The position numbers and the translations under genes are program-made. This document shows positions 4,405 to 49,003 of a DNA stretch of 64,000 nucleotides, piece by piece (positions within the stretch are counted from its first letter, which is position 1; every line of letters starts with the position of its first letter). Source of the DNA: an uncultured Gammaproteobacteria bacterium. GTDB taxonomy: Bacteria > Patescibacteriota > Patescibacteriia > S139-126. The stretch is from assembly GCA_964620905.1 (NCBI GenBank), contig CAZUKA010000001.1:18141-82140 (forward strand). Direction: 5' to 3'. The notes under the pieces were generated by a model. That model was not told the DNA's origin. It did no database searches and saw only the letters and a program-made list of their open reading frames with translations.

Positions 4405-5262
4405 ATGTCCACTGATAATAATTTTATAACCTCCTATGATCCTACCTGGTGTCCGGGTTGTGGTAATTTTGGTCTGTGGGGTGCTTTGAAAAAAACTTTA
4501 GCAGAAATTGATATCCCTAGAGAACAAATAATGGCCGTTTATGGTATTGGTTGTAGTGGCAATGGTTTCAATTTTACAAAAATAAATTCTTTTCATGGAT
4601 TACACGGTCGTACTTTGCCTGTCGCTGAAGGATTGAAACTTGCTAATCATAAGTTAACCGTGATTGCTTTGGGTGGTGATGGTGATGGTTATGGAGAAGG
4701 CGGAAACCATTTTTTACATGCTTGTCGGGCTAATCATGATATTGCTTATTTTGTCCATAACAATCAAACCTATGGTTTAACCACTGGTCAAACTTCACCT
4801 ACCACTGAACAGGGAATTAAATCAAAATCCAACCCTTCAGGCGGCGTAGATAAACCCATCAATCCTGTTGCTCTAGCGATTACAGCTGGTGCGACTTTTG
4901 TAGCTCGTGGTTTTACTGGTGATATCAATCATTTATCAGAAATGATGAAACTGGCAATAAGTCATAAGGGTTTTGCGTTACTTGATATTTTACAGCCTTG
5001 TTTTACTTTCAATAAACACAATACTTACCAATATTTTAGACAAAGAGTTTACAAATTGGAAAACCACAATCCAGCTGATTTGGTTAGAGCTTTGGAGTTG
5101 GCTGGGCAATGGGAAAGAGAAGACAAAATTCCTTTGGGGGTTATTTATCAAAATGTTACTCAGCCTGCTTTTCATGAAAATTTTCCTCAGCTCACCAAGC
5201 AGGTCTTGAAAGACCAATCTCTCCAACATGATATTACCGCAGATTTAAAAAGTTTTGTGTAA
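4405..5262 (+). CDS. korB: 2-oxoacid:ferredoxin oxidoreductase, beta subunit (TPP-binding)
   Basis: Motifs WCPGCGNFG and GIGCSG...GGDGDGY match the TPP-binding beta subunits of 2-oxoacid:ferredoxin oxidoreductases. The gene lies immediately downstream of the alpha subunit. Confidence 0.85.
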   Translation: MSTDNNFITSYDPTWCPGCGNFGLWGALKKTLAEIDIPREQIMAVYGIGCSGNGFNFTKINSFHGLHGRTLPVAEGLKLANHKLTVIALGGDGDGYGEGGNHFLHACRANHDIAYFVHNNQTYGLTTGQTSPTTEQGIKSKSNPSGGVDKPINPVALAITAGATFVARGFTGDINHLSEMMKLAISHKGFALLDILQPCFTFNKHNTYQYFRQRVYKLENHNPADLVRALELAGQWEREDKIPLGVIYQNVTQPAFHENFPQLTKQVLKDQSLQHDITADLKSFV

Positions 5263-5267
5263 GAGAT

Positions 5268-5735
5268 ATGCGTATAACTATCTTAGCGGTTGGTAAAACC
5301 AAACAAGCATTTTTACAAACCGGTGAGGGGATATATCTAAAAAAGTTATCTCCTTTTTGTCAGATTTCTTTGCAGATAATTAGTTCGCTAGCTGATATAA
5401 AAAATCAAACCAAAGAAAAAATTATTGCTAAAGAGGGTGAATTTATCATGCAAAAAATTAAACCCTCAGCCCATGTTGTTTCTTTGGATAGAACTGGAAA
5501 AAAAATTAACTCCGAACAAGTAGCCAGACAAATTTCCACTTGGTTAAGTTTGGGAAAAGAAATCGTTGTAGTTATTGGTGGTGCTTTTGGTTTATCAGAA
5601 CAAGTCAAGAAAAGATCACAAGTTATTTTAAGTTTGTCAGATTTAACTTTTACTCACGAAATGGTGCGTTTAATTTTTCTAGAACAACTTTATCGAGGTT
5701 TTACTATAATTAAGGGCGTTCCTTATCACTATTAA
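5268..5735 (+). CDS. rlmH: 23S rRNA (pseudouridine1915-N3)-methyltransferase RlmH (SPOUT family)
   Basis: 155 aa. N-terminus MRITILAVGKTK and the C-terminal ...SLSDLTFTHEMVRLIFLEQLYRGFTIIKGVPYH match RlmH signature regions. Confidence 0.8.
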   Translation: MRITILAVGKTKQAFLQTGEGIYLKKLSPFCQISLQIISSLADIKNQTKEKIIAKEGEFIMQKIKPSAHVVSLDRTGKKINSEQVARQISTWLSLGKEIVVVIGGAFGLSEQVKKRSQVILSLSDLTFTHEMVRLIFLEQLYRGFTIIKGVPYHY

Positions 5736-5736
5736 A

Positions 5737-5758
5737 AAACTGTCCTTAAGGACAGTTT
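5737..5758. terminator. bidirectional intrinsic terminator hairpin (aaactgtcc-ttaa-ggacagttt)
   Basis: Perfect 9-bp stem with a 4-nt loop, flanked by an A-run on one side and a T-rich stretch on the other. It sits between convergent rlmH (+) and a small minus-strand ORF. Confidence 0.7.
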
Positions 5759-5763
5759 AAAAT

Positions 5764-7527: not shown

Positions 7528-7554
7528 AAGCCCGCCAAAAGTGGCAGGCAAATT

Positions 7555-7776
7555 TTAAATGTAGTCGTTTTTTAGTTCCTCCTTTATTTTTTGCAAAATT
7601 TCTTTGCCAGTTAAAATTTTCATTTTATAGAATAAAGCAGCTACTGCCAGTAGAAATAAACTTAGAAATAGTTGTGACCAAATGTTTTTTTGTGGGTTTA
7701 TTTGTATGATGGCAATAGCCCCGATAGCTAAAAAGAGAAAGATTAATGACAGCATGATAAAAAAATAATAACGCAT
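7555..7776 (-). CDS. small two-TM membrane protein
   Basis: 73 aa with two hydrophobic helices. A possible weak hairpin (cccgcc...ggcagg) lies at its 3' end, between it and the convergent beta-CASP gene. Confidence 0.45.
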   Translation of the reverse strand: MRYYFFIMLSLIFLFLAIGAIAIIQINPQKNIWSQLFLSLFLLAVAALFYKMKILTGKEILQKIKEELKNDYI

Positions 7777-8117
7777 GACGCTCCTAATTTAATATTGTTA
7801 AAGTAAAAATATATTATAAGGAGGATTTGTTCTTTTGTCAATAATTTTTATCCAAGGCAGGTTGTTGAGACAAAATGATAATTATTTTATTATCGCGAGC
7901 TCATATTTATGGTAAGACGGGTTATTTTGGATCCTCCGCGTAGAACCGCAAACGCCTTAGATGCGTTTATTCAACCAAGATAATTGATCGATTTTTGGGG
8001 TTGAGATGCCCCAGCCAACTGCCTTTGATAAACTAATACTCAAAACCACTTTTTATAGTGGTTTTTTAAATGATGGTAAATTTACAATTTATAATTTACA
8101 ATTTATAATTATCTAAT

Positions 8118-8193
8118 CGGGGTGTAGCGCAGTTGGCTAGCGCGCGTCGTTCGGGACGACGAGGTCGGAGGTTCAAGTCCTCTCACCCCGACC
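8118..8193 (+). tRNA. trnP: tRNA-Pro (anticodon CGG)
   Basis: Cloverleaf read directly from the sequence. Acceptor stem CGGGGTG/CACCCCG, D-arm GCGC...GCGC, anticodon stem CGTCG/CGACG with loop TTCGGGA (anticodon CGG), T-arm GGAGG-TTCAAGT-CCTCT, discriminator A and an encoded CCA. Confidence 0.9.
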
Positions 8194-8404
8194 AAGTTCA
8201 GTATACTACCAGCTAGCTTAATTAGTGACTTTTTAGTATTAGTTCATGGTTTTACCAACCTTTGCCAAAGCCACGATAACTGTTTGGTAAAAATGTTAAT
8301 AGTGAAACAAATCAAAATAAGTTGGTTTGTTTTTTATTTAAGATTTTTACTTAATAACACAATACTTTTCTATCTTTTTTTCACAATTTATGGTATAATA
8401 AATA

Positions 8405-11031: not shown

Positions 11032-11089
11032 AATTTTGAATCGCGAATTTATATTTTGCATCAGGAAATCTTGAATATAAAAATGAAAA

Positions 11090-11117
11090 ATCTCGCTACT
11101 CGGGCGAGATTTTTTAG
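11090..11117 (+). terminator. intrinsic terminator (atctcgc-tactcgg-gcgagat + TTTTTT)
   Basis: 7-bp GC-containing stem followed by a six-T run, 60 nt after the HtrA-like stop codon. Confidence 0.75.
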
Positions 11118-11205
11118 TTTAGATACTTCATAAATTTGGATTAATTTGCAAAATTAAAATTAACTAGTGATTAGTTATTTAAATTAATTATTATAAATTC
11201 CAGAA

Positions 11206-11487
11206 TCAACTCTCTTCTGTTACCAGCTCCGAAGAAGGGGAGTATTTACGATTGCGGATTTTCCATCGGTCAGAATATTGTCCTAAGCCTTGTTGATAAA
11301 ATTGATTACGTCTCCGAGTACTTATTTGAGACCATTCTAAAACCGAACTAAAATTTAATTTGTATCTCCCTCTAACGACAATATACTTAATTTCTTGTCT
11401 TTTGATAGCTTGTCTGATAGTTTTGGTGCTTACCCCAAATAAGTGACTAGCTTGGGTAATTGATAAGCGAATTATTTTTTCTGTCAT
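11206..11487 (-). CDS. small helix-turn-helix DNA-binding protein (excisionase/MerR-type HTH)
   Basis: Sequence LSITQASHLFGVSTKTIRQAIKRQEI.YIVVRGRYKL is a typical excisionase-family HTH. It is paralogous to the ORF at 43171-43449. Internal Met at 11487 preferred over the listed 11547. Confidence 0.6.
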   Translation of the reverse strand: MTEKIIRLSITQASHLFGVSTKTIRQAIKRQEIKYIVVRGRYKLNFSSVLEWSQISTRRRNQFYQQGLGQYSDRWKIRNRKYSPSSELVTEES

Positions 11488-12428: not shown

Positions 12429-13454
12429 ATGGATAAGTTAAATAAAAATTTACAAAGTTTAAGAGCAATAAAACTTGATAGTCAAGCCAAAGCCAGAGGG
12501 CGCGTGGTTTTATTGTCCAACTTAGCTTCTGATCAAACGGAAAAATTTTCTCTGATAAAATATTTAATTTCCCACCCATTGGTTTTGAAGCCTCTGACTT
12601 ATGTGGCAGCGGTGGTTTTGTTGTTTTTATTTGGTTCCTCCTATACTTTTTCAGCCGCCACCAACGCTTTGCCCGGCAATACTTTGTATCCAGTCAAGTT
12701 GCAGTTGGAAAAGTTGCAAGTTACTATGACTTCTGACCAAATGCTGAGAGCTAAAAAACAAATTGAGTTTACCGACCGGCGTTGGCAAGAATTTCAAAAT
12801 ATTTCCGAATCAGACGTCTTGTCTTTGGAAAAACAAGAGCAAGTAGCCAGAGCCGCTAGATACTTCAATGATTCTTTGCAAGAAATGAAAAATAGCCTAA
12901 ATGAAGTAAGTCAAGTAGAGAAAAATACTACCACCAATGGCGCAGTTGATATTGCTCAACTAGTCAACACCAAAACCAAACAGTATGAAGAAAAATTGGC
13001 TGGAGAATATGTTGATCTGCCAATTTCAGTTAAGTTGGTGATTGCCAAAGAAGTAGAAGAGATAAAGTTTCAGTCATTGGAGTTGTTGGTGACTAAATAT
13101 GAACAAGGCAGTAGTAGCGTTTCTCAAAGCGAGGTGGAAGCACAGTTACAAAGTAAAATTATATCTTTGGTAGAAAAAGCCAGTACCATGTCTGGAGATA
13201 GGCAAACTACTGCTTTGGAAAAATTACAATCAGTCCAAACGGCACTGTCTGATAAAAAATATTCTTTGGTAGTAAGTTCTATTCGTACTTATGAACAGTG
13301 GTTGGCAGAGGAAAAAGCCAAAGCCGAAGCAACGACCGAAGAGGCAACTACAACAGAAGGTGAAGTTTTAGGTGAAGAAGAGGTGGTTGACGAGACAGTA
13401 AATACTGTGAGTGATGTTAGTGCCAATACTTCAACAGAGAAAATAGTAGAATAA
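12429..13454 (+). CDS. membrane-anchored anti-sigma-factor-like protein (DUF5667-like), coiled-coil ectodomain with acidic T/E-rich tail
   Basis: Start codon overlaps the sigma gene stop (TAAATG). One TM helix LTYVAAVVLLFLFGS lies after a short cytoplasmic N-terminus. This position and architecture are typical of ECF anti-sigma factors. Function inferred from context only. Confidence 0.45.
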   Translation: MDKLNKNLQSLRAIKLDSQAKARGRVVLLSNLASDQTEKFSLIKYLISHPLVLKPLTYVAAVVLLFLFGSSYTFSAATNALPGNTLYPVKLQLEKLQVTMTSDQMLRAKKQIEFTDRRWQEFQNISESDVLSLEKQEQVARAARYFNDSLQEMKNSLNEVSQVEKNTTTNGAVDIAQLVNTKTKQYEEKLAGEYVDLPISVKLVIAKEVEEIKFQSLELLVTKYEQGSSSVSQSEVEAQLQSKIISLVEKASTMSGDRQTTALEKLQSVQTALSDKKYSLVVSSIRTYEQWLAEEKAKAEATTEEATTTEGEVLGEEEVVDETVNTVSDVSANTSTEKIVE

Positions 13455-13510
13455 AAATTACTTGCCTGGTATTCTGAAAAAAGTATTTTAAAAAACAAAA
13501 TTTACCTCTA

Positions 13511-13673
13511 CTTTTTTGACAACAAAAAAGTAGCAAAAAATTGCGTCCAATGCTTTGGTTCAGGCAAAATTGCCAATCCGCTCGTGTGCCTCTCAAAATC
13601 GCTTGCGCTAGTTGAGAGGCAAAATTCACTCGCTCCTTGACAATATTTGCACTTCACAAAGCAAATGGCCGAA
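13511..13673 (+). repeat. Family A palindromic repeat element, copy 1 (about 160 nt)
   Basis: Aligns over about 150 nt with 21219-21380. Shared core is gttcaggcaaaattgccaa.cgctcg..tgcctctcaaaa.cgctt.c.ctagttgagaggcaaa. Contains a 9-bp hairpin gcctctcaa/ttgagaggc. Confidence 0.7.
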
Positions 13674-13835
13674 TAAAAATAAATTAAATGTTTAAAAATT
13701 TAGATTTATTTACAAAATTAGAAAATTAAAAATTAAAAATTTTTTAAACGTTTGAAATTTGTAGATTTATGTCTATAGCTTTCAGACTTTTAAAGTCTGT
13801 GTCCCGCGCACGCGGGATAAAGTAGATCTTTGTTA

Positions 13836-13864
13836 GAACTTTGAATCATTCGGCCCTTCGTGTT
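13836..13864 (+). promoter_or_regulatory. candidate ECF-type promoter (GAACTT-N17-CGTGTT) upstream of the S-layer-like gene
   Basis: Motif agGAACTT / 17-nt spacer / CGTgtt loosely matches ECF sigma -35 GAAC and -10 CGT consensus. It lies about 250 nt upstream of ATG 14110 and just downstream of the ECF sigma/anti-sigma pair. Weak, sequence-only match. Confidence 0.25.
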
Positions 13865-14109
13865 ATTTCACGTTTGGGGGCTTTGGCAAAAAGTGAACAA
13901 GCAGATAGTTCTTTGCCAGTCATAAATGACTGGGTACGCTGCTTGTTCTAGACGAGCGGCATTTAGAACACTGCTTAGAGTTTGCTTTATAAAAATGCCA
14001 TTTGACCAAAGGTCGGACCAACGTAATCAGTAACCAAGATAAGCCTGGGTGGTTCTTTCGTTGCAATGAGTTCTAGCAAGACCTAATTATTAAAAAACAC
14101 AAACACTGT

Positions 14110-17100
14110 ATGAAAAAGTTTTTGATTGGCAGTTTGACAGTCATGACCGTAGTTTGGGCCATGGGTTTGTCTGCTTTCGTAGCAGTCCCAGCCTCAGCTG
14201 CTGTTGGTGATCTTGTTAAATCTGCTTCATCTAGCACAGTCTATGTAGTAAAGGCAGACGGTGTCACAATTTGTCAGTTCCCACATGCCAATGTTTACAA
14301 GTCATGGGGATATCCATCAAATTTCAGCACCGTTATGACTAAGGACCTCTCCAGCTACACTGTAGGATCAAACATCGAATTTAGAGATGCTTCCTTAGTG
14401 AAGGGAGATGGCCCAGCTGTATACCTCGTATACAACAACATGAAGAGACCAATTGTTTCTGATGTGGTCTTTTTGGCTCTCGGTTATGACTGGGATGATA
14501 TTACCTGGTTATCCGATGCATTTTTAGCTGATTACACCACTGGCGCGGTAGTTGATTCTTCAACTATGCACCCAGATGGTCAAATCGTAAAATATGCTGG
14601 AAATTCAGCGGTTTATCTCATTGATAACGGCATGAAGCGACCATTTGCTTCAGGTGCGGCTTATGAAGCCAATCGTTATTCTTGGAGTGACATTATTACT
14701 ATCCCTGACACCGAGACCTATCCAAATGGCTCAGCCATTTCAGGTTATGAGCAAGCTTTATCCTTACCAAATTGTATTGGTACCTCAGCAACTCCAGCTG
14801 GTAGCGGTTTGACAGTAGCTTTGTCTGCTTCAACCCCAGCCGCTGGTAGCATTATCACTGATTCATCCAATGGAGGTCAGGCTTTAGCTTCTTTCACCAC
14901 TGTTAACTTCACCGCCTCTTCTGATGGTGATGTTAAAGTAACCAATTTGAAGTTCAAGAGAACAGGTGTATCATCTGATACCTCACTTGATAACATGTAT
15001 CTCTATGATGGTAATACCAAACTTACTGATGGTGGTTCACTATCAAGTGGTATGGTTACCTTCAACAATTCAAATGGTTTATTCACAGTTCCAGCCGGCA
15101 CTACCAAGTCCATCACAGTTAAAGGTGATGTATCTACCACTGCCACCGCTGGTCAGACTATTGGTTTTGAATTATCCGGTTCCGCTTGGGTTACCACCAA
15201 CGGTGCATCCGTTTCTGGTAGTTTCCCGGCCTCTGGACATTTAATGACCGTAGCTTCTGTGTCTGATTTGGCCAAAGTTGGTGTGGCTACAACTTCTGTA
15301 GCTACAACTGTTGATCCTGACTCCACTGATGTAGTGGTTTGGCAGGGTACAGTTTATACCACCAACCAAACTGTGGCTTTGCACTATGTTAAATTTACTT
15401 CCCTCGGCAGCATTCAATATGATGACTTGAAGAATTTCAAGTTATATGATGGTGGCACTTTGGTTTCCTCTGTTGCCAGCATGACTTCTGACCGCGAAGT
15501 AATGTTTGACTTAACTGGCAGCCCAGTTAATTTCACTGTTGGTCAATCCAAGACCTTCAAAGTAATGGCTGATGTCGTCAAAGGTTCTACCCGTACTTAT
15601 AATTTCACTATCCAAGAAGCAACTGATATAGTTGCTAAGGATACCAATTATAATGTGTATGTTACTTCCAAAGTAACTAGCTCTTATGCTAACTGGGTGG
15701 TACTTAAGATGACTACTGATACTCAAATTAATTCTGGTGATTTAACTATTACCAAAGCCAATACCTCACCAACTGGCAATGTTGCTCAAAATGGTACCAA
15801 TGTAAAAGTTGCTACCTTTGAGTTGAAAGCCACTGGTGAAGATATGAAGGTAAAAGATTTGAACGTTAAGGCTGATTTTTCTTCAGGTTATGAAGGTGGT
15901 CTTGACAATGGTAAAGTATTTTTCAATGGCGTCCAAGTTGGTTCTACCAAGGATTTAACTGAAGCTGGTACCATCAACTTTACTTTTGGTTCAAGTTTGA
16001 TTGTTCCAGCCGGTACTACAGGTGTATTGGATATCTATGCTGATATACGTTCAGCTACAGGTACTACCATCACTGATGGTTCTGACGTCACTGTTTCTTT
16101 GGAAGCAGGCAGTTCCAATGTCCAAAAGATGGCATCACTTGGCTATACTAGCGCTCCAAGCGCCTCAGTACCAGCAAATAGTTTAAATGTAACCGCTGGT
16201 TCATTAAGTATTACTGAGTACTCTGCTTATACCAACCAAACCATGGTAGCAGGTAGTAACAACGTCAAGGTTGGTAGCGCTGTGTTTACCGCTGGATCAG
16301 CTGAAGGTGTCAATGTGACTTCAATCACAGTTGATTTATCAGCTGCTGAAGCTGGTAGCTCTACTAACATGTATTTGATGAAGGATGGTGTACAAATTGG
16401 TGTTACAAAACCAACCTTGTCCACTTCCAACATCTTTTCAGTCAATTTCAGCATCCCAGCTTCTGGTAGCCAGATCATTGATCTGTATGCCAGTTTGAAG
16501 AGTAATGCCGGACAAGGTACTTGGGAAGCTTCTATGTCTGCTGAAGGTGTAGGATTAACCACCAACAACACAGTTACTGCTGGTGCCCAAGCTTTACAAG
16601 ATATTACCATTGGCACTGGTGCTTTAACTGGTGTAGTTGATGCTTCCAGACCAGATGCTGATATAATCTTAGCTGGTACTACTAAAGTCTTGATGAACGC
16701 TATTAAGTTTACTGCTCAGTATGAAGACTTCAATGTTCAAGAAATGACTTTTACTGCAGACAATGCTACTGGTAATTTCCAACAACATGTTGGTGCAGTC
16801 ACACTTGAATATCCAACTCAAGGTGGTGGCACAGGTACAGCTCTTGGTTATATGGCAGGTGGTAGTGTTACTTTCACAAACCTTACCTTCTATATAGCAA
16901 GAGATACTTCAGCTGTGTTGAAAGTTTACATTGATGTTCCATCACTATCATCTGGCACCATTTCTGGTGGCACTGGTAGTATAAATTGGGATGTTTCTGC
17001 TACTTATAAGCATGTCGGTTTAGGAAGTGGTAATACTGACAGTGATGCTGATTCAGCACCTGGTATAGTTGCTGCTTCTGATATTGATGGTAATGACATG

Positions 17101-17634: not shown

Positions 17635-17677
17635 TTTTTGAGTTTAGTTAGATAGTAAAAGTACTTTACAACGCTTT

Positions 17678-17715
17678 CCACCCCCTGTTCCTATGGCAGG
17701 GGGTGGATTGTTTTT
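17678..17715 (+). terminator. strong intrinsic terminator (ccaccccctg-ttcctatgg-cagggggtgg + attgttttt)
   Basis: 10-bp GC-rich perfect stem followed by a T-run, 44 nt after the stop codon of the large surface protein. Confidence 0.85.
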
Positions 17716-17986
17716 AATTACTAATAACTAATTACTAATTTTAAACAAATTAGTATTTTTTATTGGTTTTTGTTATAATTTTTATAGTTTATTTGTCTGT
17801 TAAGCTAGTATTTGATATTTAGATTATTGAATAAAAGGTTTAAAAAGTATTATTATTTTTTATTAATATTAAATTTTGTAATTTTTAATTTTGTAATTTT
17901 ATAAACAAAAGAATATAAATTTTTAAACATTTGAAATTAAAAATTATTTAAAAATTAGAAAATTTAAAAATTAAAAATTATATAAT

Positions 17987-21127: not shown

Positions 21128-21218
21128 TTTTAAATTATAAATTGTAAATTTTAAATGTAATTGTCATTCCCGTGTAAACGGGAATCCAAAAATTAAAAAT
21201 AAAAGATTTTTTATTTCA

Positions 21219-21380
21219 ACTTTTTGTCAGCAAAAAGTAGCAAAAACTGCCGACCAGCGCTTCCGTTCAGGCAAAATTGCCAAACGCTCGCTTGCCTCTC
21301 AAAAGCGCTTACTCTAGTTGAGAGGCAAATCCCGCTCGTTTATTGGCAATTTTTCACTTCAGGAAGCGGAAGGTCGGAAT
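21219..21380 (+). repeat. Family A palindromic repeat element, copy 2
   Basis: See copy 1. Same orientation, extended imperfect palindrome (ccgaccagcgcttccg...cggaagcggaaggtcgg outer arms; gcctctcaa/ttgagaggc inner hairpin). The tracker ORF 21224-21412 lies inside it and is judged spurious. Confidence 0.7.
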
Positions 21381-21545
21381 ATTTTAAAAATTTTGATTTA
21401 TTTAAAAATTAAAAAATTACAAAATTAAAAATTGATTAGTAATTAATAATTGACCAAAAGTTATCCCCTGGTCATATATTAAATATTTTTTATAATAAAA
21501 AGCAAAGTTAATTTGAACTAGGAAGGAGGGTATTAGTAAAAAGTT

Positions 21546-21615: not shown

Positions 21616-21675
21616 ATTGTCATGCTGAACTCGTTTCAGCATCTTATGAGATTCCGAACCAAGTTCGGGATGACA
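21616..21675. repeat. Family C compound hairpin repeat (attgtcatGCTGAAc..gTTTCAGCatcttatgagattcCGAACcaaGTTCGggatgac), copy 1
   Basis: Two adjacent perfect hairpins enclosed by gtcat...gatgac. A near-identical copy lies at 48942-49003. Confidence 0.7.
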
Positions 21676-21699: not shown

Positions 21700-21842
21700 T
21701 TCCGTATTTAATACGGAATCTAAAAACAAAAAAATATTTATTTTTTGGATTCCTGACTAGATCAGGAATGACAAGGAAAATTGATTTCTGATATATTACA
21801 AAAGTAAAATTCCTGCCACTACAGGCAGGCAGGAATGAAAAA
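21700..21842. repeat. cluster of Family D hairpins (stems beginning ATTCC... and ending ...GGAATGACAA), BIME/REP-like
   Basis: Three hairpins read directly: cattccgtatttaatacggaatc; ggattcctgactagatcaggaatgacaagg; aattcctgccactacaggcaggcaggaatgaaaa. Related hairpins occur at 21163-21186, 24846-24945 and 25253-25335. Confidence 0.65.
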
Positions 21843-21917
21843 ATTCATACATCATAAATCATAACCAAATTCTTAATACTTAAAAATTATAAAATTTAAA
21901 AATTAAAAATTTTTTAT

Positions 21918-24810: not shown

Positions 24811-24873
24811 AAGATTTATATGAAGGTTTATTTTAGATTTTTTTGGATTCCTGCCTGCGCAGAAATGACAAGG
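24811..24873. repeat. 63-bp perfect direct repeat, upstream copy (flanks the GIY-YIG gene)
   Basis: aagatttatatgaaggtttattttagatttttttggattcctgcctgcgcagaaatgacaagg is identical to 25220-25282. The downstream copy starts inside the last 8 codons (KDLYEGLF*) of the GIY-YIG ORF. Confidence 0.85.
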
Positions 24874-24957
24874 ATAAATACAAAAATGTCATTCCTTATT
24901 TAATAAAGAACATCTTGTCATCCCTGACTTGATCAGGGATTTAAAAATAAAAAAAAG

Positions 24958-25245
24958 ATGAGAGAGTATTTTGTTTATATTCTGGCTAGTAATATAAATG
25001 GCACATTGTATATAGGTGTGACTTCAGATTTGAAGAAAAGGATATATGAACATAAAAATGATTTAGTACCAGGTTTTACCAAGAGATATAAAATTCATGA
25101 TTTAGTTTATTTTGAAGTAACCAATGACATCAGAGAAGCATTACTTAGAGAAAAAAGATTAAAAAAATGGAAAAGAGAGTGGAAAATTAAGCTAATTGAA
25201 AAAAATAACCCAAGTTGGAAAGATTTATATGAAGGTTTATTTTAG
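24958..25245 (+). CDS. GIY-YIG nuclease superfamily protein (UPF0213/URI-domain, about 95 aa)
   Basis: YFVYILASNINGTLYIGVTSDLKKRIYEHKN...RLKKWKREWKIKLIE matches the GIY-YIG / conserved Arg / His / Glu pattern of stand-alone GIY-YIG proteins. Confidence 0.8.
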   Translation: MREYFVYILASNINGTLYIGVTSDLKKRIYEHKNDLVPGFTKRYKIHDLVYFEVTNDIREALLREKRLKKWKREWKIKLIEKNNPSWKDLYEGLF

Positions 25246-25282
25246 ATTTTTTTGGATTCCTGCCTGCGCAGAAATGACAAGG
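25220..25282. repeat. 63-bp perfect direct repeat, downstream copy
   Basis: Identical to 24811-24873. Spacing between copies is 409 bp. Confidence 0.85.
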
Positions 25283-25376
25283 GAGAAGGGATTCCTGTTG
25301 AAGTTTATCCGCTAAATAAGCGGGATAGGAATGACAAAAGAAAAGCGGAAGGTCATAATACCTTAATATATATAAC

Positions 25377-45012: not shown

Positions 45013-45232
45013 GGAGGGTTAGAATTAAGAATATAGAATTAAGAAGTAAGTATTAAGGGGGACAAAGAGATAAATATTTAATTTTTGAATTTTATAATTT
45101 TTAAATAAATCTAAATTTTTAAACATTAAAAATTATTTACAAAATTAAAAATTACAAAATTACAAAATTTCATTTTAAGTTTTAAATAAAACTTAAAATG
45201 TAGTATAATATTGATACTAAATTGGTCAGTAG

Positions 45233-47440
45233 ATGAAAAAAACCTTAAATATTTTTTTGATTATAGCAGTCACGCTAAGCGTGATGAATTTTTTTGTTGT
45301 GCCGGCTTGGGCTGATGAAAAAAAAAGTTTTAGTGCTGATGAAGTAGTAGTGAAATTGAAAGCCAGTGACCAGCTCTATATACTATCAACCAAGCAAGGT
45401 ATAGATACAGAATTTTTATTGAACAACTACCAAACTAATGAGTTGATTGAATATGTGGAACCAAATGTTAAATTTTTCGCTGCTGGTGTTTTGCCCAATG
45501 ATCCTGATTTTATCCAGCAGTATTATTTGGATCAAATACAAGCGCCGGCTGGTTGGGATATTTCTACCGGTCGATCCGATGTGGTAGTTGCTGTGTTGGA
45601 TAGTGGTGTGGATATTGATAATCCTGATTTAAAACATAACCTCTGGGTCAATGTCAATGAAAAACCATTTGATTTAATTGACAATGATGGCAATGGTAAG
45701 GTAGATGATTTTTATGGTTGGAATTTTGTTGATGAAAATAATGACGTCAAACCAAACTTTACCAATTTTACTGAACTGGGGGTAAATCACGGTACAATCG
45801 TATCTGGAATTTTGGCTGCTCGCGGAAATAACGGCCAAGGTATTGCCGGAGGTGCATGGCAAGTAAAAATTATGCCCCTAAAAGTTTTGGCTAGTGACGG
45901 CACGGGTGATTCTCTGACAGTAGTAGAAGCAATAAATTATGCCATTGCCAAGAAGGTAGACGTGATTAATTTGTCTGTAGTTGGTCATAGTTACAGTCAG
46001 GCCCTGCAAGATGCTCTACAACGTGCTTGGGAAGCTGGCATTGTCATCGTAGCAGCAGCTGGCAATGAAGTGGGACTAGGACAGGATATGGATATTTATC
46101 CGGCTTATCCTGCTTGCAATGATGGTGTAGATAATATAATTATCGGGGTAGTAGCGGTTGATCGTTATAATCGCTTGGCGAATTTTTCCAATTATGGTTC
46201 AAGATGTTCTGATGTAGCTGCACCGGGAGTAAATTTTTATTCTACAGTAGCTTACAATGACCATTTCCCAGGTTTTAATCATCATTATAAAGGAGGATTC
46301 TCTGGTACATCGGTAGCTACACCTTTGGTTTCAGCACTGGCGGCTTTAATTAAATCAGTAAATCCCAGTTTAACCAACGTACAAATCAGAAATATTATTA
46401 TCAATACAACTAGTGAGATTGATTCGGTGAACCTGAATTATCAAGGTAAGTTGGGTTCGGGACTTATAGATTATAATCGCGCCTTAGGGGCTGCCAAGGC
46501 CACAGTCGCTAGTACCGCTCAACCGGTGAGTCAGGATTGGTTGGTAGTGGGGGCCGGTGCCGGTGGTGGGCCGCATGTGAGAGTATTTGATTGGCAAGAT
46601 AATGTTTTGACCCAATGGTTTGCTTATGACGAAAAGTTTCGTGGTGGAGTCAATGTTGCCACCGGAGATGTTGATGGTGATGGTAATCGTGATATTGTCA
46701 CTGCACCCGGTGCCGGTGGTGGGCCGCATATCAGAATTTTTGATCATCAGGGCAATGTCAAAGCCCAATGGTTTGCTTATGACGAAAAGTTTCGTGGTGG
46801 AGTCAATGTAGCGGTCGGTGATATTGACAATGACGGATTAGCAGAAATTATTGTGGCACCAGCGGGCGGAATGGAGACGATCGTCAAAATATTTGATTAT
46901 ACCGGGCATATGCGTTTTAAGTTTTTAGCTTATGCTGACAATTTTATCGGTGGTGCTAGTATTGCAGTTGGTGATGTTGATAATAATGGTTTGGCTGATA
47001 TTATCACTGGAGCTGGTTCTGGTGGTGGTCCGCATGTGAGAGTATTTTCTCGTCAGGGACAGATAAAGCAACAATGGTTTGCTTATGACGAAAAGTTCCG
47101 TGGTGGAGTCAATGTAGCGGTCGGTGATGCCAATAATGACAATCAAAAAGATATAGTCACTACTCCAGGTCAAGGCGGTGGGCCGCATGTGAGAGTATTT
47201 GATTGGCAAGGCAAAGTAAAACAGCAATGGTTTGCTTTTCCTCCCGAAAACCGTACCGGACTAAAAGTTGCCGTTGGAGATATTACTGGTGATGGGCAAA
47301 ATGAGATTTTGGTAGCAATGCAAAAGGGTGGTGAACCCTTGGTGCGGATTTTCAATTCCGCTTATAAATTAGTCAAAGAAATTTCTGTTTTTCAAGCCGG
47401 TTTTACCGGTGGAATAAATTTACAAATATTAAGCCGTTGA
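45233..47440 (+). CDS. secreted subtilisin-like serine protease (peptidase S8) with C-terminal FG-GAP/beta-propeller-like tandem repeats
   Basis: Signal peptide present. Catalytic triad motifs are Asp VAVLDSGVD, His HGTIVSGILAA, and Ser GTSVATPLVSALAAL. Then 5-6 copies of a ~50-aa repeat G.GGGPHVRVFDWQG....WFAYDEKFRGGVNVAVGD.D.DG..DIVT. Confidence 0.85.
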   Translation: MKKTLNIFLIIAVTLSVMNFFVVPAWADEKKSFSADEVVVKLKASDQLYILSTKQGIDTEFLLNNYQTNELIEYVEPNVKFFAAGVLPNDPDFIQQYYLDQIQAPAGWDISTGRSDVVVAVLDSGVDIDNPDLKHNLWVNVNEKPFDLIDNDGNGKVDDFYGWNFVDENNDVKPNFTNFTELGVNHGTIVSGILAARGNNGQGIAGGAWQVKIMPLKVLASDGTGDSLTVVEAINYAIAKKVDVINLSVVGHSYSQALQDALQRAWEAGIVIVAAAGNEVGLGQDMDIYPAYPACNDGVDNIIIGVVAVDRYNRLANFSNYGSRCSDVAAPGVNFYSTVAYNDHFPGFNHHYKGGFSGTSVATPLVSALAALIKSVNPSLTNVQIRNIIINTTSEIDSVNLNYQGKLGSGLIDYNRALGAAKATVASTAQPVSQDWLVVGAGAGGGPHVRVFDWQDNVLTQWFAYDEKFRGGVNVATGDVDGDGNRDIVTAPGAGGGPHIRIFDHQGNVKAQWFAYDEKFRGGVNVAVGDIDNDGLAEIIVAPAGGMETIVKIFDYTGHMRFKFLAYADNFIGGASIAVGDVDNNGLADIITGAGSGGGPHVRVFSRQGQIKQQWFAYDEKFRGGVNVAVGDANNDNQKDIVTTPGQGGGPHVRVFDWQGKVKQQWFAFPPENRTGLKVAVGDITGDGQNEILVAMQKGGEPLVRIFNSAYKLVKEISVFQAGFTGGINLQILSR

Positions 47441-48941: not shown

Positions 48942-49003
48942 ATTGTCATACTGAACTTGTTTCAGCATCTTATGAGATTCTGAAACAAGTTCAGGATGAC
49001 GGT
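48942..49003. repeat. Family C compound hairpin repeat, copy 2
   Basis: attgtcatactgaacttgtttcagcatcttatgagattctgaaacaagttcaggatgac. Compare 21616-21675. The tracker ORF 48920-49108 is spurious. Confidence 0.7.

Follow-up and report, generated by a model that had tools for sequence, protein, structure and literature searches.

The palindromic element that occurs twice in the analysed DNA is best read as a lineage-restricted, non-coding dispersed repeat of ERIC/REPIN/MITE-like type, which would act in cis as a hairpin at transcript boundaries. We give this reading a probability of about 0.5. The element, here called Family A, was studied in a stretch of 64,000 nucleotides (the window), and its hairpin is maintained by compensatory substitutions. 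On the best reading, the family is confined to CPR-type bacteria of one small clade, whose genomes measure about 1 Mb, and is gained and lost there at transcription-unit boundaries. Membership of the named ERIC, REPIN or MITE families is not claimed. The original prediction had offered a MITE-like mobile repeat, a shared cis-regulatory leader and a small structured ncRNA family as three plausible readings. The mobile repeat fits best: dispersal, filled and empty sites and a compensated structure were found, a transposase and an unambiguous target duplication were not. Repeats of the REP/ERIC/MITE type have hardly been described in CPR/Patescibacteria, and in the literature we found no account of the Family A element in CPR bacteria. 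With genomes streamlined to about 1 Mb, these bacteria might be expected to have purged selfish or regulatory repeats. Family A clearly exemplifies a repeat that is constrained in structure and has strict gene-end polarity, and its covariance model is ready for use in surveys.

The two regions are homologous and lie in the same orientation, as had been predicted. Copy 1 lies at 13508-13671 and copy 2 at 21217-21377; alignment with MAFFT of the segments 13451-13733 and 21159-21440, which include their flanks, gave 82% identity. The 19-mer GTTCAGGCAAAATTGCCAA occurs exactly twice in the 64-kb window (0.04 expected), and the 16-mer CTAGTTGAGAGGCAAA is likewise found exactly twice. With the covariance model the copies score about 154 bits each (copy 1, 153.9; copy 2, 154.3; E ~1e-40), and with filters off no third copy in the window rose above noise. 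Both copies fold as a long imperfect hairpin on either strand, with z-scores of -5.3 to -6.2 against dinucleotide shuffles, which bears out the predicted extended imperfect palindrome.

The unit is bipartite and about 165-185 nt long. A perfect small A/T hairpin and an A-tract are followed by an imperfect hairpin of about 128 nt. On the plus strand of copy 1, sequence and fold place the small hairpin (CTACTTTTTTG-ACAA-CAAAAAAGTAG) at 13508-13533. The A-tract spacer CAAAAAATTG follows at 13534-13543, its columns A2-A5 being invariant in 11 sequences. The long hairpin occupies 13544-13671; RNAalifold, pair counts and the covariance model support six helices with 41 consensus pairs in all, interrupted by two 2x2 mismatch loops that are invariant, and an apical hairpin at 13588-13620. 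The inner hairpin gcctctcaa/ttgagaggc proved exact, with its arms at 13588-13596 and 13612-13620 in copy 1. The most conserved block, GTTCAGGCAAAATTGCCAA at 13558-13576, is identical in both window copies and includes the TTCA mismatch motif as well as a short palindrome, GGCAAAATTGCC; TTCAGGCAA.ATTGC.AA is invariant across the 11 sequences. In copy 2, also on the plus strand, the small hairpin (CAACTTTTTG-TCAG-CAAAAAGTAG; sequence and fold) lies at 21217-21240 and the A-tract spacer CAAAAACTG (sequence and alignment) at 21241-21249. Its long hairpin spans 21250-21377 (fold, pair counts and covariance model), with the outer arms ccgaccagcgcttccg / aggaagcggaaggtcgg. The palindrome predicted for copy 2 is thus real, and only the quoted 3' arm needs correction, as it reads aggaagcggaaggtcgg and not cggaagcggaaggtcgg. 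The small A/T hairpin is present in all Family A copies and was not found on its own elsewhere in the window. There is no conserved ORF in the element; small internal ORFs lie in differing frames and have non-ATG starts. A promoter reading of TTGACA in the small-hairpin loop was discarded, as no -10 follows and other copies have TTGTCA or TTGATA. The same applies to TGAAC as an ECF-sigma promoter, the would-be -10 of which falls in covarying stem positions.

The covariation analysis called for by the original prediction supports the structure. From 11 sequences, the consensus of 41 pairs in six helices includes 11 pairs with compensatory double changes, and standard pairs fill 96.4% of 446 pair cells. 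When the partner column was slid by 1-3 columns, 1-4 double-change pairs were counted instead of the observed 11, and none of 500 column shuffles reached the observed pairing values. Several of the double changes separate the subfamilies described below. Thus they reflect few events, each inherited by several copies, still at 11 or more different pairs. The inner and outer helices of the long hairpin covary. The middle helix, GGCAAAATTGCCAA / TTGGCAATATTTGC, is almost invariant, and the diverged copy L066b changes it compensatorily. The small hairpin covaries once, from CTAC/GTAG to TTAC/GTAA in copy L001. Of the two conserved blocks, GGCAAAATTGCC is on one arm of the long hairpin and GGCAAT(A)TTTGC on the other.

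A search for copies in related genomes yielded ten more, in two related small-genome MAGs and in metagenome contigs, so that Family A has at least 12 copies in at least four genomes or contigs. A strict core-derived pattern run against species-representative genomes found seven, all in two MAGs, CAZINS (binchicken_co22_135; four copies) and CAZBLW (GCA_964493305.1; three copies). BLAST of the fetched loci against the window added a further, more diverged copy (L066b), which adjoins tRNA-Pro on a CAZINS-type contig and was found independently of the search pattern. A metagenome scan with an 18-mer returned at least five true loci among the matches listed. Four of them duplicate MAG copies, and the sole addition among these matches is a cut copy (L121), the rest being mostly chance word matches. 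All true copies score 133-163 bits with the covariance model. These counts are lower bounds, the genome pattern being strict and other relatives having been viewed at syntenic loci only. Copy number is low: the 64-kb window contains two copies, and a genome at least 3-5. Blastn gave no Family A match in phages and plasmids or in 5,426 E. coli genomes, and three viral-contig scans produced only chance word matches, none of which passed the covariance model. With Rfam at the gathering threshold, tRNA-Pro alone passes in the window and the related loci give tRNAs only. No class in Rfam, including 6S, SRP and Y RNA, riboswitches, ribozymes and omega RNAs, matched Family A at that threshold, and at a permissive threshold the best matches to copy 1 reach 10-18 bits, far under the family thresholds.

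By pairwise identity the copies form three subfamilies, {W1, L002, L007}, {W2, L001, L005, L066b} and {L003, L004, L006}, where W1 and W2 are the window copies. All three occur in each of the two MAGs and two in the window, with their members at different loci. L006 and L007, which occupy the same protease/sigma site, belong to different subfamilies, and copy 1 is 90% identical to L007 at a different locus. Copies of one subfamily are 83-92% identical across genomes, whereas copies inside one genome are 72-88% identical. Adjacent coding DNA is 69-76% identical between genomes, and most intergenic DNA is unalignable. An identity above that of coding DNA points to strong constraint, exchange between genomes, or both. 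Divergence is thus greater inside a genome than between genomes for copies of one subfamily, which is not what a recent burst would leave; conserved functional paralogues would fit it too.

The window is ordinary chromosomal DNA of low G+C content (~35%). The domains DUF5667 and DUF5671 and a homologue labelled Patescibacteria indicate an origin in the CPR/Patescibacteria. Its genes include pyruvate:ferredoxin oxidoreductase, an ECF sigma factor with a DUF5667 partner, Wzy/TPR proteins, glycosyltransferases and HrcA-DnaK. Both copies had been noted to lie several hundred nucleotides upstream of large genes. This is correct (434 and 537 nt), but the stop codon of the upstream gene is nearer: copy 1 begins 51 nt past the stop of the DUF5667 gene and copy 2 begins 86 nt past that of a Wzy/TPR gene. 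Across the loci the neighbours are unrelated (DUF5667, Wzy/TPR, NUDIX, DUF5671/MurB, M23 peptidase, GatA, pyrophosphatase, tRNA-Pro, PDZ protease and ECF sigma). At all nine independent loci the element is oriented like the gene immediately upstream of it, usually 13-150 nt past the gene end; under random orientation such agreement has P ~0.002-0.004. One of the nine is tRNA-Pro, which is inverted relative to all surrounding protein genes, and there the element follows the tRNA. Contig L066 carries two copies 3 kb apart in opposite orientations, one of them the tRNA-Pro copy, and each is oriented as its own upstream gene. A tie to ECF sigma operons was also considered; it holds at three loci and fails at the other six. 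Neither the window nor the fetched loci contain a transposase, RAYT, integrase or reverse transcriptase gene.

Five orthologous sites are filled in some of the related genomes and empty in others, an insertion polymorphism as in MITEs. The element is missing at the copy 1 site of CAZINS, of CAZBLW and of five other relatives, with L129-L134 among the empty loci, and the copy 2 site is empty in five relatives. The protease/ECF-sigma site is filled in CAZINS and CAZBLW and empty in the window, and the tRNA-Pro site is filled in CAZINS only. At the NUDIX site two genomes are filled, L135 retains the 3' half only, and L136 and L137 are empty. Copy 1 is also absent from a strain with 97% nucleotide identity, L128. 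Comparison with the window by blastn and alignment showed that a segment of 269 nt with copy 1 (13459-13727, plus strand) is missing there. In the window this segment is bounded by a 7-nt direct repeat, TAAAAAT, at 13452-13458 and 13727-13733 in A/T-rich DNA. The state of L128 is a deletion rather than an empty target, because the lost segment also carries CCTGGTATTCTGAAAA, which is ancestral at the site in three genomes. A clean target-site duplication was not seen here, and the other copies show no consistent duplication.

A second repeat family was encountered as well. It consists of small REP-like G+C hairpins with GTCAT..C / G.ATC (GGAATGAC) ends, which are intergenic and occur singly or as inverted pairs; the pattern has eight matches against 1.8 expected. 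In the window these hairpins lie at 21163-21186, 21619-21674, 21749-21772, 24846-24870, 25255-25335 and 48945-49000, and in relatives at 11200-11290 and 19480-19730 of L131 and at about 11120-11260 of L138. CAZBLW has two small GTCATTCC-type hairpins of this family where the window has copy 1. Weak matches to the Family A model at both orthologous sites of L131 also turned out to be small GTCATTCC-type hairpins and were rejected. In four copies of Family A (L002, L005, L007, L066b), hairpins of the second family are inserted in or beside the small A/T hairpin.

How the element might act is suggested by its position and by its two strands. On the gene-sense strand the two invariant 2x2 internal loops read U·C/C·U (GUUCA against CUUCA and CGCUCG against GCUCGC). 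On the opposite strand both become tandem G·A, 5'-GA/3'-AG (UGAA/UGAA and GCGAG/CGAGC). Tandem G·A pairs are thermodynamically stable and common in functional RNAs. The minus-strand folds of copy 1 end in ...CAAUUUUUU, so that the A-tract appears as a U-tract directly 3' of the hairpin, and in all copies the minus strand has a G+C stem followed at once by UUUUU(U), the signature of an intrinsic terminator. It is also the more stable strand by 2-10 kcal/mol in nine of ten full copies. On the gene-sense strand, a weak run of three to five U is found in only four of ten copies and begins 4 nt past the stem. Substitution intermediates favour neither strand, as G-U and A-C are tied (5 against 5 in the long hairpin, 1 against 1 in the small one). 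We infer that Family A works in cis, on transcripts, as a hairpin at their boundaries. In the gene-sense transcript it would form a stem-loop in the 3' UTR or between cistrons and, like REP and ERIC elements, protect or process the upstream message. Read from the opposite strand, the hairpin and its invariant U-tract would constitute a canonical intrinsic terminator, which could halt converging or antisense transcription before it enters the upstream gene. Spread might be mediated in trans by an HUH/RAYT-like or other transposase, or by recombination. If the element is a polar terminator or transcript stabiliser, it bears on how these bacteria delimit their transcription units. If it is moved by a single-strand transposase, it points to an unrecognised mobile system in the clade.

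The minus-strand features would equally suit a stand-alone sRNA gene family of three paralogous subfamilies, antisense to the flanking genes, in which a rod of about 140 nt ends in its own terminator and offers G·A/AGCG sites to a protein. The identical 5'-GA/3'-AG reading of both mismatch loops, the UUUUU(U) directly past the stem and the greater stability of the minus strand all speak for it. So do loops conserved as well as the stems, a between-genome subfamily identity above that of coding DNA, and the presence of all three subfamilies in each MAG and two in the window. If there is an RNA gene, it is probably on this strand, opposite to the one that the original prediction had assumed for its structured ncRNA. 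However, no conserved promoter lies at a fixed distance; the right-hand DNA varies and offers only generic A/T-rich -10-like hexamers. The small A/T hairpin, present in every copy, would fall past the terminator without a role. Positions are not syntenic, the deletion of a copy in a 97%-identical strain would be unusual for a needed RNA gene, and in four copies small GC hairpins of another family have inserted in or beside the unit. We consider an sRNA gene family rather unlikely on this balance. A bolder version, in which Family A is an undescribed class of mobile structured RNA in CPR bacteria (an antisense rod of about 140 nt with two tandem G·A and four AGCG motifs, its own terminator and relocating subfamilies), is quite unlikely.

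Alternatively, the element could work purely as DNA, with no RNA role. A single-strand transposase or recombinase acting in trans would then use its folded single strand as substrate, as is the case for REPIN-RAYT, IS200/IS605 ends or attC sites. Its polarity would reflect the mechanism of replication or insertion. The build is REPIN-like in that two conserved arm blocks with palindromes (GGCAAAATTGCC and GGCAAT(A)TTTGC) enclose a less conserved inner part that is compensated. The tie between G-U and A-C is expected when neither RNA strand is selected. In attC sites and IS608 ends, conserved asymmetric mismatches mark the active strand, and the mismatches of Family A could be read likewise. 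The half copy in L135 resembles a REP singlet, and other palindromic repeat families sit at the same intergenic spots. We nevertheless regard this explanation as unlikely, for the window and loci hold no RAYT or Y1 transposase, integrase or cassette array, and copy number is far under that of REPIN populations. The two oppositely oriented copies of L066, only 3 kb apart, are easier to reconcile with transcription than with replication polarity. Core sites R''/R' as in attC are absent, and between the two arms the TTCA motifs repeat directly and do not complement each other. A very improbable reading is the shared cis-regulatory 5' leader, or riboswitch-like element, of the large secreted-protein genes at 14110 and 21918. 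It draws on these two genes having signal-peptide-like N-termini and lying on the same strand as the copies, 434 and 537 nt downstream. Elsewhere, however, the downstream genes are unrelated (MurB, a 182-aa ORF, an ECF sigma operon, or a converging tRNA or RNase gene), and a promoter-like A/T-rich block separates the element from the downstream gene. The leader reading fails because orthologues of both large genes lack the element in six relatives, with CAZBLW, CAZINS and L129-L134 among the loci without it, and because the 1174-aa gene has its own structured leader (13770-14112), which is kept where Family A is absent. The preferred reading remains that of a dispersed repeat acting as a boundary hairpin. 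Counting against it are the strict polarity, which is atypical of ERIC or REPIN elements, the low copy number, the greater divergence within than between genomes, the failure to find a transposase in the window and fetched loci or a clean target-site duplication, the tie between G-U and A-C intermediates, and the scarcity of U-runs on the gene-sense strand.

ERIC, Correia, SPRITE and REPIN elements have been described as intergenic repeats that form hairpins in single-stranded DNA or mRNA and affect transcript stability, processing or RNase cleavage, or termination. Family A resembles ERIC in being an imperfect palindrome of about 130 nt at intergenic transcribed positions, often at the 3' ends of genes. 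It shares with ERIC a high cross-species conservation at non-orthologous loci and presence/absence variation among strains, and ERIC is reported to alter the stability of the transcript that carries it. In contrast to ERIC, Family A occurs in another phylum, in far fewer copies, and has the additional A/T hairpin and A-tract. It has no sequence similarity to ERIC, as judged by the lack of a blastn match in the 5,426 E. coli genomes, which carry ERIC. Relative to the upstream gene the polarity of Family A is strict, whereas ERIC elements are found in both orientations.

Compensatory changes are also a property of REPINs. With them Family A has in common two inverted conserved blocks with short palindromes, a less conserved spacer with compensated pairing, a predicted hairpin and decayed half copies. 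It differs in being asymmetric and polar as a unit, and its inner hairpin and loops are also strongly conserved. A within-genome population of REPIN size, tens to hundreds of copies, was not found: Family A has a handful, two in 64 kb and three and four strict-pattern matches per MAG plus one divergent copy, and no RAYT gene lies in the 64-kb window. As regards the terminal inverted repeats of MITEs, nearly the whole long segment is inverted, the unit is asymmetric, and its termini are blurred by A/T-rich flanks.

Other dispersed small repeats in the literature likewise carry terminator-like or RNase III-cleaved hairpins, affect the expression of neighbours and insert into or next to other repeats. 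The terminator-like face of Family A, unlike theirs, is on the strand opposite the flanking genes, and for Family A no terminal inverted repeats with target duplication, promoter or IHF site are demonstrated. On the minus strand of every copy a G+C-closed stem followed by five to six U predicts intrinsic termination. Family A nevertheless departs from a usual intrinsic terminator, in that its stem has about ten times the length, its sequence is conserved as that of a repeat family, and it faces away from the flanking genes. Ordinary terminators of hairpin and U-tract are present in the same genome, for example at 17677-17707 and 11086-11114. In comparison with integron attC sites, GTTCAGG of the 5' arm stands opposite CACTTCA of the 3' arm, a direct and not a complementary relation (R''/R' = RYYYAAC ... 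GTTRRRY). Several genes and a distance of 7.7 kb separate the window copies, and there is no integrase, which does not correspond to an integron array. The identities attC, retron, 6S, SRP and Y RNA were rejected, since their defining features or partner genes are absent.

Several further features were observed in the window. The leader of about 330 nt (13770-14112) upstream of the 1174-aa secreted-protein gene is 87% identical to CAZINS, far above coding DNA. In relatives it was located at 5290-5623 of L006, 11060-11255 of L128, 1985-2329 of L129, 11470-11775 of L131, 1375-1720 of L132 and 7670-8018 of L134. It is predicted to be closed by a long-range stem (GTAGATCTTTGTTAGAACTT ... GAGTTCTAGCAAGACCTA) and to form several hairpins. 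Compensatory changes occur at 12 of the 62 consensus pairs, and G-U pairs are numerous on the plus strand. The leader has no match in Rfam and is a candidate for a new cis-regulatory RNA downstream of the ECF sigma/DUF5667 operon.

A recurrent A/T-rich block, TTTAAAAATTTAGATTTATTTACAAAATTAGAAAATTAAAAATTAAAAATT, with phased AAAATT/AAAAATT runs lies upstream of many genes and sometimes abuts the start codon. It was found at 2043-2110, 11127-11164, 13676-13745, 17914-17981, 21383-21435, 21846-21913 and 45069-45170. The same block stands directly 3' of several Family A copies; in this genome it probably serves generally as a promoter or other 5'-region feature.

At 24811-25282 a perfect 63-nt direct repeat (24811-24873 and 25220-25282) brackets an ORF of about 92 aa (24959-25236), the N-terminus of which, read by eye, is like that of GIY-YIG nucleases. 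The second repeat copy overlaps the 3' end of the ORF and contains a REP-like hairpin. The arrangement looks like a recently inserted small mobile nuclease gene. In the interval between the beta-CASP RNase gene and tRNA-Pro, the minus strand carries a perfect sigma-70-like promoter, TTGACA-17-TATAAT (7841-7813), which together with a terminator-like hairpin (7549-7530) brackets a short antisense unit (7530-7841). In relatives, a 73-aa minus-strand ORF is called at the matching position. Right past tRNA-Pro, L128 has about 680 extra nt with a DUF3788 gene (5081-5761), which are absent from the window (8188-8194); this is a second strain-level indel between the window and L128, and it is tRNA-adjacent. 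Finally, five tandem diverged repeats of 153 nt (51 aa) were observed at 46466-47293, inside the subtilase/FG-GAP gene at 45233-47440.
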